A stretch of DNA of 64,000 bases from Eledone cirrhosa (lineage: Eukaryota): positions 6,014,001-6,078,000 of the forward strand of contig OZ024752.1 of the NCBI GenBank assembly GCA_964016885.1, given 5' to 3'. A model generated the notes under the pieces. That model had not been told where the DNA came from. It saw nothing but the letters and a program-made list of their open reading frames with translations, and searched no databases. Below are positions 45,701 through 48,700 of the stretch, piece after piece. Numbering within the stretch: position 1 is the stretch's first letter; every line of letters starts with the position of its first letter. The position numbers and the translations under genes are program-made.

Positions 45701-48700
45701 GACATTGGAAGGTTTCAAGGCTCTTATTGAGAAAGAATGGTTGTCCTGTGGTCATCGTTTTACTCATCGAAGTAACCAGACAGCAGCCAACCAAGCCAGT
45801 GGTTTTGCTGCTATCTTCCTTCAGTTCTTAGATATTGTACATCAGGTAAGACATACTTTCCTTCAGTTCTTAGATATTGTACATCAGGTAAGACATACTT
45901 TCCTTCAGTTCTTAGATATTGTACATCAGGTAAGACATACTTTCCTTCAGTTCTTAGATATTGTACATCAGGTAAGACATACCATCCTTCAGTTCTTAGA
46001 TATTGTACATCAGGTAAGACATACCATCCTTCAGTTCTTAGATATTGTACATCAGGTAAGACATACCATCCTTCAGTTCTTAGATATTGTACATCAGGTA
46101 AGACATACCATCCTTCAGTTCTTAGATATTGTACATCAGGTAAGACATACCTTCCTTCAGTTCTTAGATATTGTACATCAGGTAAGACATACCTTCCTTC
46201 AGTTCTTAGATATTGTACATCAGGTAAGACATACCATCCTTCAGTTCTTAGATATTGTACATCAGGTAAGACATACCATCCTTCAGTTCTTAGATATTGT
46301 ACATCAGGTAAGACATACCTTCCTTCAGTTCTTAGATATTGTACATCAGGTAAGACATACCTTCCTTCAGTTCTTAGATATTGTACATCAGGTAAGACAT
46401 ACCTTCCTTCAGTTCTTAGATATTGTACATCAGGTAAGACATACCATCCTTCAGTTCTTAGATATTGTACATCAGGTAAGACATACCTTCCTTCAGTTCT
46501 TAGATATTGTACATCAGGTAAGACATACCATCCTTCAGTTCTTAGATATTGTACATCAGGTAAGACATACCTTCCTTCAGTTCTTAGATATTGTACATCA
46601 GGTAAGACATACCATCCTTCAGTTCTTAGATATTGTACATCAGGTAAGACATACCTTCCTTCAGTTCTTAGATATTGTACATCAGGTGTGACGTATCTTT
46701 TTCTCTTTCATCACCATTAACACTCAGTATATCACATAGAGACACAGTATTATCACATATAGANNNNNNNNNNNNNNNNNNNNNNNNNNNNNNNNNNNNN
46801 NNNNNNNNNNNNNNNNNNNNNNNNNNNNNNNNNNNNNNNNNNNNNNNNNNNNNNNNNNNNNNNNNNNNNNNNNNNNNNNNNNNNNNNNNNNNNNNNNNNN
46901 NNNNNNNNNNNNNNNNNNNNNNNNNNNNNNNNNNNNNNNNNNNNNNNNNNNNNNNNNNNNNNNGCTGTTGGAAGAGAAGAAGGTCCCTAAAGTTGATGGC
47001 CCTGATGAAGAATCTGGCTTCTCTCCCAAACATTCTTCAACCCCTGCAATTGGTTTATCTATCTGGGATTACATTGAGAAACATCACCGACGCTCCACTG
47101 TATTCTTCAATTTCATGTACAGTCCATCAGATTATGATGTGGTAAGTTGCCTAACTTATTTCATTATTTGGTTTTTAATTCTTTCAGTAAAAAAAAATTA
47201 ACTTAAACTATCATCATCATCATCATTTAACATCTTATTTTCCATGGGTTAGATCGGTTGTCCAAGTTTTACAAGTCTGGCCAGTTGGCCGCGCCATACC
47301 TTGCTCAAACGGAACTGTATTTTGGCAGGGTCTTTTACAGTCCTTCCTATCACCAAAAATGTTTAGAGTGTGGAGCAGGGTGGTTCCGTTACAAGACAAG
47401 TCTGTCTGACTGCACCATACCCTGCTTTTTTAAACTTGTAAAGCATGGCTCTTCTGAGACTTCTATTATCTGGAAGGATTATTAAAGCAACAAATGAAAA
47501 TTTATGTCTGCAAGCCAGAAATTATCTAATAGAATGGGGCACTCTGTTGAAGGCTTTCTCCAGGTCAACAAAAGCTAAGTAGAGGGGTTTACTGTTAGCT
47601 AGGTACTTCTCCTGCAGCTGCATTACAAGGAGGAGAGCATCTGTGGTATTTTTATCTGGCACAAATCCAACCTGCATTTCATTTAGGTTAACTAGGTCCC
47701 TAATCAGCTGTGCGATAACCTTTTCTGTGACCTTCATGACCTGGTCGACCAACTTGATGCCTCTGAAGGTTTCTCTGGAATTGATATTTATAAGGTGCCC
47801 CCAGTACATTCTATAGGGTGCTATTAACACTGTAATATGAGTGGCATTACGAAGGCGCTTATAAACAAGATGAGGTCCTTGACCTGTCTCAGAACATATC
47901 AACCTACCAAACCCATCCCAGTGTAGAAAATAGACATATAATGATAATGATGTTTAGTTATATATTGGTTAATTGATTATATATTGATTGGTTATAAATT
48001 GGTTAATTAATTTGTCGTTTTGCCAGGTTTTGCGTCCTTATTCCAATCTCTCCAATTTGGTGATCTGGAATTATTTCCTGAATGAGGATCTGGCCCATGG
48101 TCCATCCTACGATATTGAAATCATGGGACGAGAAATGCGACTGAATGACAATGAGCAAGACGCAGATTTGGCACCACATCGGCGCCGTAAAATCATCAAT
48201 GGCTGCTATGACAACATTTTGGTACAAGAACCAAATTTCTTCTCCTGGGAATTTCAAGTAAGTTTTCTGTTTTCAACTGTTAAATATTTAAAGTTGTGTA
48301 GTTATTATGAACCATTGTGTGATATGTAATATAGATATGATAGTATAGTTAATATTAGGTATTGTGTGATATGTAATATAGATATGATAGTATAGTTAAT
48401 ATGAGGTATTGTGTGATATGTAATATAGATATGGTAGTATAGTTAATATGAGGTAAGACCTTTGTTAGCCGCTCTCCAGCCATCTATTTAAAACTGTATA
48501 CAGCTATGGTGCGACCACACTTGGAATTCGCATCATCAGTCTGGAACCCCTATCTTGCTCGGAACATTGACCTCCTGGAAACTGTTCAGAGACGTGCAAC
48601 CAAGCGCATACCCTCCATCAGACACCTACCATACTCTGAACGCCTTGCTTCCCTGGGCATGGATTCATTGAAGCTCCGACGTCTGGCAATGGACTTGGTG

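Follow-up and report, generated by a model that had tools for sequence, protein, structure and literature searches.

An exon-boundary minisatellite with reiterated in-frame donor sites in the SBF/MTMR13 gene of the octopus Eledone cirrhosa

Introduction

If the end of a coding exon is repeated in tandem together with its 5' splice site, which of the many donors is used, and does the encoded protein vary in length? The question is raised by a window of 64,000 nucleotides from Eledone cirrhosa (contig OZ024752.1, positions 6,014,001 to 6,078,000), in which a conserved exon runs into an array of such repeats that keeps the reading frame open. A sequence-only reading of this DNA had proposed that the array generates length-variable isoforms within the phosphatase fold, either through later donors or through a 21-nt microexon with its own acceptor, or else that the first donor has to be selected strictly. 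Here we describe the array, its host gene and the transcript evidence at the junction, and weigh these possibilities against each other.

Results

The exon at 45660-45845 matches myotubularin-related protein 13 (SBF) of Octopus bimaculoides (P0003) with 100% identity over 62 residues, several further exons of the gene match the same protein with 93–97%, and in total 15 coding blocks were mapped by tblastn between 3586 and 56269. By its protein matches the host gene can be assigned to octopod SBF/MTMR13, in agreement with the Sbf identity suggested earlier for the exon. SBF proteins are catalytically inactive myotubularins. Two close acceptors and two close donors at 54490-54512 and 50546-50549 agree with the Octopus proteins P0003 and P0062, whose database isoforms read [13 protein letters not shown] and KTG-GMH; these variants are ordinary alternative splice choices in the SBF gene. 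The first ~160–240 residues of the Octopus bimaculoides models P0003, P0063 and P0065 have no match in the window, and these N-termini resemble a retroelement-type ORF that may have been fused into the models.

Residues 403-446 of P0003 found no match in the window (best E-value in tblastn 3.9) and the coding sequence resumes directly behind the assembly gap (Table 1), so that the exon following the array falls into the 200 Ns. Consequently, the exons at 45660 and 48027, between which RT-PCR had been suggested, are not neighbours: 44 codons are missing in the gap and a further exon part lies at 46964-47141. The gap is also a trap for annotation: as it hides 44 conserved SBF codons, gene models predicted from the assembly would break there. 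A 21-bp repeat starts at 46725, shortly before the gap.

Table 1 Features at and around the exon-boundary array (positions in the window)
Feature	Position	Strand	Description
Mirror-image 56-bp array, same gene	5461..6203	+	Units copy an acceptor and the 22 bases at the exon start; real acceptor at 6182 preceded by 12 decoy AGs; internal control
Authentic SBF/MTMR13 coding exon	45660..45845	+	62 codons in phase 0-0 with myotubularin-like domain PF06602; splice junctions at both ends in X18, X10 and X7 contigs
Left TATCTT microhomology	45812..45817	+	Exactly 882 nt (21 x 42) before the right TATCTT at 46694; probably seeded the first slippage
42-bp minisatellite	45815..46687	+	30 nt exon end and 12 nt intron start, 20.8 copies; 19 further GTAAGA pseudo-donors
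Authentic 5' splice site (donor 1), CAG/GTAAGA	45846..45851	+	The used donor; X18 contig leaves at 45845 into the IHRQFPLSFE exon
Diverged terminal donor GTGTGA	46686..46699	+	U1 match 6/11 versus 8 for the other donors; in-frame TGA; followed by TATCTT
Assembly gap, 200 N	46764..46963	.	Hides the acceptor and 44 codons (IHRQFP...EAGW equivalent) joined by donor 1
Coding sequence resuming after the gap (LLEEKK...DYDV)	46964..47141	+	Donor after 47141

Tandem Repeats Finder reports the array with 98% matches and 0% indels, far beyond what is expected of a repeat by chance. The exon-end motif occurs 21 times in exact steps of 42 nt, its ends running from 45845 to 46685, so the 21-unit array described by the sequence-only reading is real, with the correction that the exon end copied in each unit is 10 codons long ([11 protein letters not shown]) instead of about nine. 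As that reading also held, the repeat is in frame and stop-free ([15 protein letters not shown] per unit) until a TGA within the last donor, and the final copy is diverged: the motif is followed by GTAAGA in copies 1–20 and by GTGTGA in copy 21. All 14 donors scored in the gene have A at +4, which makes GTGTGA atypical. The inner units differ from each other at two adjacent positions only (TT in three, CA in nine and CT in eight units, interleaved), while the intron part of the terminal unit differs at 4–5 of 12 positions. Hence the inner units are homogenised and the boundary unit is diverged. At 45816 + 42k, the first exonic base, nine of the 20 inner units carry a T>A change (Phe>Ile codon) which the functional copy does not have; this variant could reach the coding exon through exchange with the array.

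With a 200-N gap 76 nt downstream, the array might have been mis-expanded by the assembler, a possibility that had been named as a potential refutation. The DNA-like run X15, which may itself come from the source sample of the assembly, resolves the locus into a unique contig (depth 6.2) that ends at 45844 and a separate repeat contig of 72 nt (42 + 30) with depth 60. The resulting ratio of 9.7 compares with 7.3 or 11.2 predicted from the k-mer counts of the window, depending on the identity of a single mismatch variant; depth gives no exact copy number. The interleaving of three unit variants and the distinct flanks at both ends of the array also speak against mis-expansion. A stretch of 76 nt of non-array sequence (from 46687 to the Ns starting at 46764) separates the array from the gap to which it had been said to be adjacent. 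We regard an assembly artefact as highly improbable, although the exact copy number may differ between alleles.

The main evidence on donor choice comes from assembled sequencing runs. A search with 45660-45929 listed 24 runs, four of which contained at least half of 21 sampled words; all four belong to one organism and one study. The contigs of four of the 24 runs were aligned to 45480-45941, a stretch comprising the exon and array units 1–3. One of them, X18, is not recorded as RNA and yet is plainly spliced; it represents a single sample of the matching organism. Its record 11 is a contig of 7,004 nt with a depth of 57.4, which covers 45657-45845 with 0 differences. The end of the upstream exon (43398-43502) precedes this segment and the IHRQFPLSFE codons follow it, so donor 1 is joined straight to the next exon. 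The protein keeps the normal ...VHQ-IHRQFP... junction. The same junction is found in the relatives X10 and X7, with 10 differences in 189 nt. The contig break that is typical of a repeat loop is present in X15 and absent in X18, where depth is 0 over 45848-45941 and neither joints nor contigs on the first array units are listed. The missing cover on the array would be weak evidence by itself, and the weight rests on the contig that crosses the junction. In the aligned region (45480-45941) the contigs gave no splice joint of the kind expected if a duplicated AG or GT made a new intron or exon, as in intron gain by tandem duplication (Rogers model). The word shares (0.86 of 21 words for X18, 0.91 for X15-17) fit an exon-only content, as 156 of 198 distinct words are exonic, and are too coarse for counting; a single sample underlies all three of the large DNA-like runs from the matching organism. 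For the major transcript of one sample, therefore, the fallback of strict first-donor selection holds, and the use of donor 45846 alone, the result that was to make the array neutral, is what one unbroken spliced contig displays. The proposed length-variable isoforms are not supported: in the major transcript the exon downstream follows directly on donor 1, and the first array units are free of contigs.

This result leaves room for rare products, due to the fact that run contigs drop rare variants. Donor 1 could be dominant while donors 2 and 3 are used at a low, unregulated rate, giving forms with 14 or 28 additional residues which evade nonsense-mediated decay and are likely misfolded noise. 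Donors 2–20 share the 9-mer of donor 1, and an open frame follows them. Moreover, the two nearest pseudo-sites are used in human IFI6 and CBS, as the account in PMC1557585 has it. Against such leakage, X18 has a main depth of 57 and yet no contig on 45846-45941, its mRNA contig runs on without a break, and the authentic site alone is described as used in F7, LMNB2 and PDGF (PMC1557585) and in amphioxus Adh3 (PMC3087553), as far as these descriptions go. We therefore consider regular leakage rather unlikely, while use at the level of a few percent is compatible with the explanation that we prefer, first-donor use with silent later donors. Masking of the later donors by RNA structure is not supported for 45760-46100 (z-score −0.76). 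Recursive splicing at the AG/GT unit ends would yield an identical mRNA; the pyrimidine tract there is poor.

A different possibility is that the array is functional: SBF isoforms of variable length would arise if the inclusion of 21-nt FLDIVHQ microexons, singly or several at a time, or the choice of later donors were under regulation. Every unit does contain CCTTCAG, 21 nt and GTAAGA in phase 0-0. The putative acceptor, claimed to be the microexon's own, consists of the F-L-Q codons of the exon, the CAG being coding sequence; it is present in copy 1 too, where the contig passes unspliced. The AG-free zone upstream of it measures 14 nt, compared with 19–69 nt for the real acceptors of the gene (13 of 13 scored), the array has 0 TGC, and adjacent 21-nt units lie just 21 nt apart. 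The pyrimidine share upstream is 0.59–0.65 in the array copies and 0.53–0.94 in real acceptors, so that this share alone does not exclude a microexon acceptor.

Microexons of the SRRM3/4-dependent (eMIC) type range from 3 to 27 nt in size. The 21-nt segment resembles them in being short and frame-preserving and in having AG and GT. According to the part of the source at hand (10.1101/2024.09.17.613571), UGC is found in 74–79% of SRRM3/4-dependent microexons and is not strictly required, and strong pyrimidine tracts and branch points distant from the AG are usual. The array differs in lacking UGC, a distant tract (AG-free zone of 14 nt) and a conserved insertion (0 of 20 homologues). Inclusion of microexons of this type is typically neural; it is absent from the X18 contigs, which stand for one sample of unspecified tissue and from which rare forms are dropped.

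An in-frame, stop-free repeat is expected with a chance of ~0.27, because one period in three is divisible by 3 and 80% of random 12-mers led by GT have no stop, the 30 exonic nt of the unit being stop-free by descent. Three of the six frames of the array are open, and the periods of 7 of the 22 minisatellites of the window are divisible by 3. For these reasons we rejected the in-frame period as a sign of selection.

Comparison with homologues points in the same direction. An alignment with 20 long homologues, selected from 61 matches, shows the segment free of indels in 20 of 20, with no insertion at the junction in any of them; these proteins are gene models or major isoforms, in which minor forms would not show. 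The region of the junction aligns without gaps to the solved structure of MTMR2, and in the AlphaFold model a predicted helix (389-406) spans the junction, with low confidence (pLDDT ~53 there, model mean 50.7). Insertions of 7 or 14 residues at this place would likely be harmful. Taken together, regulated inclusion or donor choice appears very improbable to us. We give equally little credence to its most elaborate version, in which later donors or 21-nt units would be chosen most plausibly in nervous tissue and copy number would set a ladder of SBF/MTMR13 isoforms in steps of 7 or 14 residues, proof against nonsense-mediated decay. Were such a ladder true, a minisatellite in a cephalopod would act as a heritable isoform dial inside a phosphatase-like fold.

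A metagenome scan returned 80 loci with a best identity of 87%. Among the best 17 of these 80 loci, none has a repeat of the exon end; an intron is present at the position in six and coding continues in 11. In 24 short homologues the intron is read through after VHQ, and neither an octopod nor a repeat is among them. Two proteins from ENA records carry a second copy of the same exon end: in P0001 it lies in frame behind the donor, ~34 residues apart, and in P0002 it is longer and degraded. Judged from the protein sequences, the two suggest independent duplications of the same exon edge in other animals.

The window contains 22 minisatellites with a coverage of 17.7%, all tandem repeats together amounting to 29.8%. 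In the gene span, 2 of 21 arrays overlap a splice site, where two ways of random placement predict 0.64 (p 0.13) and 2.3 (p 0.73); such overlap is at chance level. The second overlapping case, the mirror-image 56-bp array, reiterates an acceptor. Its decoys are strong and 12 of 12 lead to a stop, and for this reason the gene can be said to tolerate useless arrays at exon edges. In both arrays the copy adjoining the exon body stands out: on the donor side it is used in the spliced contig, and on the acceptor side no other copy is open. A 17-bp array starts 5 nt past the donor (6267) of the mirror-array exon. Array edges lie within 60 nt of a splice site in 7 of 21 cases in 3014-56128 (p 0.0002 if placed uniformly, p 0.058 if placed within the same intron) and within 120 nt in 10 of 21 (p 0.004, again for the same intron), the cut-offs of 60 and 120 nt having been picked after inspection of the data. 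This crowding may mean that repeats arise, or are retained, close to splice sites. Two 48-bp arrays with near-identical consensus (30255-30557 and 40009-40283), 10 kb apart and in different introns, suggest a dispersed minisatellite family.

Discussion

We conclude that the locus is an exon-boundary minisatellite whose first donor is used in the spliced contig and whose later 20 donors are probably silent, neutral by-products of repeat expansion. As to its origin, the exon end and its donor may have been duplicated by a 42-bp slip between a TATCTT in the exon and a second TATCTT shortly behind the donor, which serve as microhomologies. TATCTT is found at 45812 and 46694, 21 x 42 nt apart, and the inner units differ at the corresponding place; this flanking microhomology fits GTGTGA as the old intron start. 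Expansion and homogenisation of the inner units could subsequently have come about by slippage or unequal exchange, with the terminal GTGTGA unit remaining outside. Exon definition would reach from the 45660 acceptor as far as the nearest good donor downstream, at 45846, as in the 5'-to-3' scanning of human F7 intron 7, and the remaining array would leave together with the intron. Scanning was shown in mammalian cells and not in molluscs.

The pseudo-donors match donor 1 in quality and products of the ladder would be stop-free, hence nonsense-mediated decay would spare them. Since the use of later donors would survive this decay, raw RNA reads would gauge the fidelity of first-donor choice without that bias. 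Twenty identical in-frame, stop-free donors thus constitute a natural test of 5' splice-site choice, and the same gene offers the mirror case on the acceptor side.

The array belongs to a known class, the exon-boundary minisatellites of the "mirage" or F7 IVS7 type. It displays four of the five features that define this class: units are near-identical and arranged head to tail, the first unit spans the authentic boundary, the mRNA is made from the exon-proximal site (major form, one sample), and the boundary unit is diverged; the fifth feature is copy-number polymorphism or instability. In the sources covered by our literature search, no exon-boundary minisatellite from a cephalopod was found. 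The array thus brings a cephalopod example into a class already described and otherwise changes little.

De Grassi and Ciccarelli (2009, PMC2812944) describe, in the portion of their work considered here, intron gain from internal tandem repeats, which resembles the octopus locus in having boundary repeats with AG/GT signals. In their cases, cryptic sites are activated and give rise to new introns or alternative transcripts, whereas no such product was seen in the octopus contigs. Amphioxus, an invertebrate, has "mirage" minisatellites, reported for Adh3, troponin C, the globins BflGb6 and BflGb9, and PGBD5 (PMC3087553, PMC3902484). As these reports portray them, they share with the octopus array the tandem duplication of a donor- or acceptor-side boundary, undisturbed splicing and a concerted evolution that excludes the boundary units. 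They differ in belonging to another phylum, and somatic and allelic length instability is reported for Adh3 (PMC3087553, PMC3902484).

The human cases, for which we rely on what the review of examples in PMC1557585 conveys, are similar in scale: IFI6, CBS, LMNB2 and PDGF have 10–25 reiterated donors behind the real one. In IFI6 (6-16) intron 2 and CBS intron 13, the two nearest pseudo-donors are used in addition, a use that is not seen in the octopus contigs, while at the LMNB2 and PDGF intron 4 minisatellites the authentic site is used alone (PMC1557585). Similar in behavior is the 37-bp VNTR of human F7 intron 7, where, in the account of Borensztajn et al. (2006, PMC1557585), the pseudo-donors are functional yet unused and the most upstream site wins. 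There, too, the first unit lies over the exon-intron boundary, identical pseudo-donors follow, and only the most upstream donor is used. F7 has 5–9 copies, each including 4 exonic bases, and its period is not divisible by 3; the octopus array has 21 copies, each including 30 exonic bases, and is in frame and stop-free.
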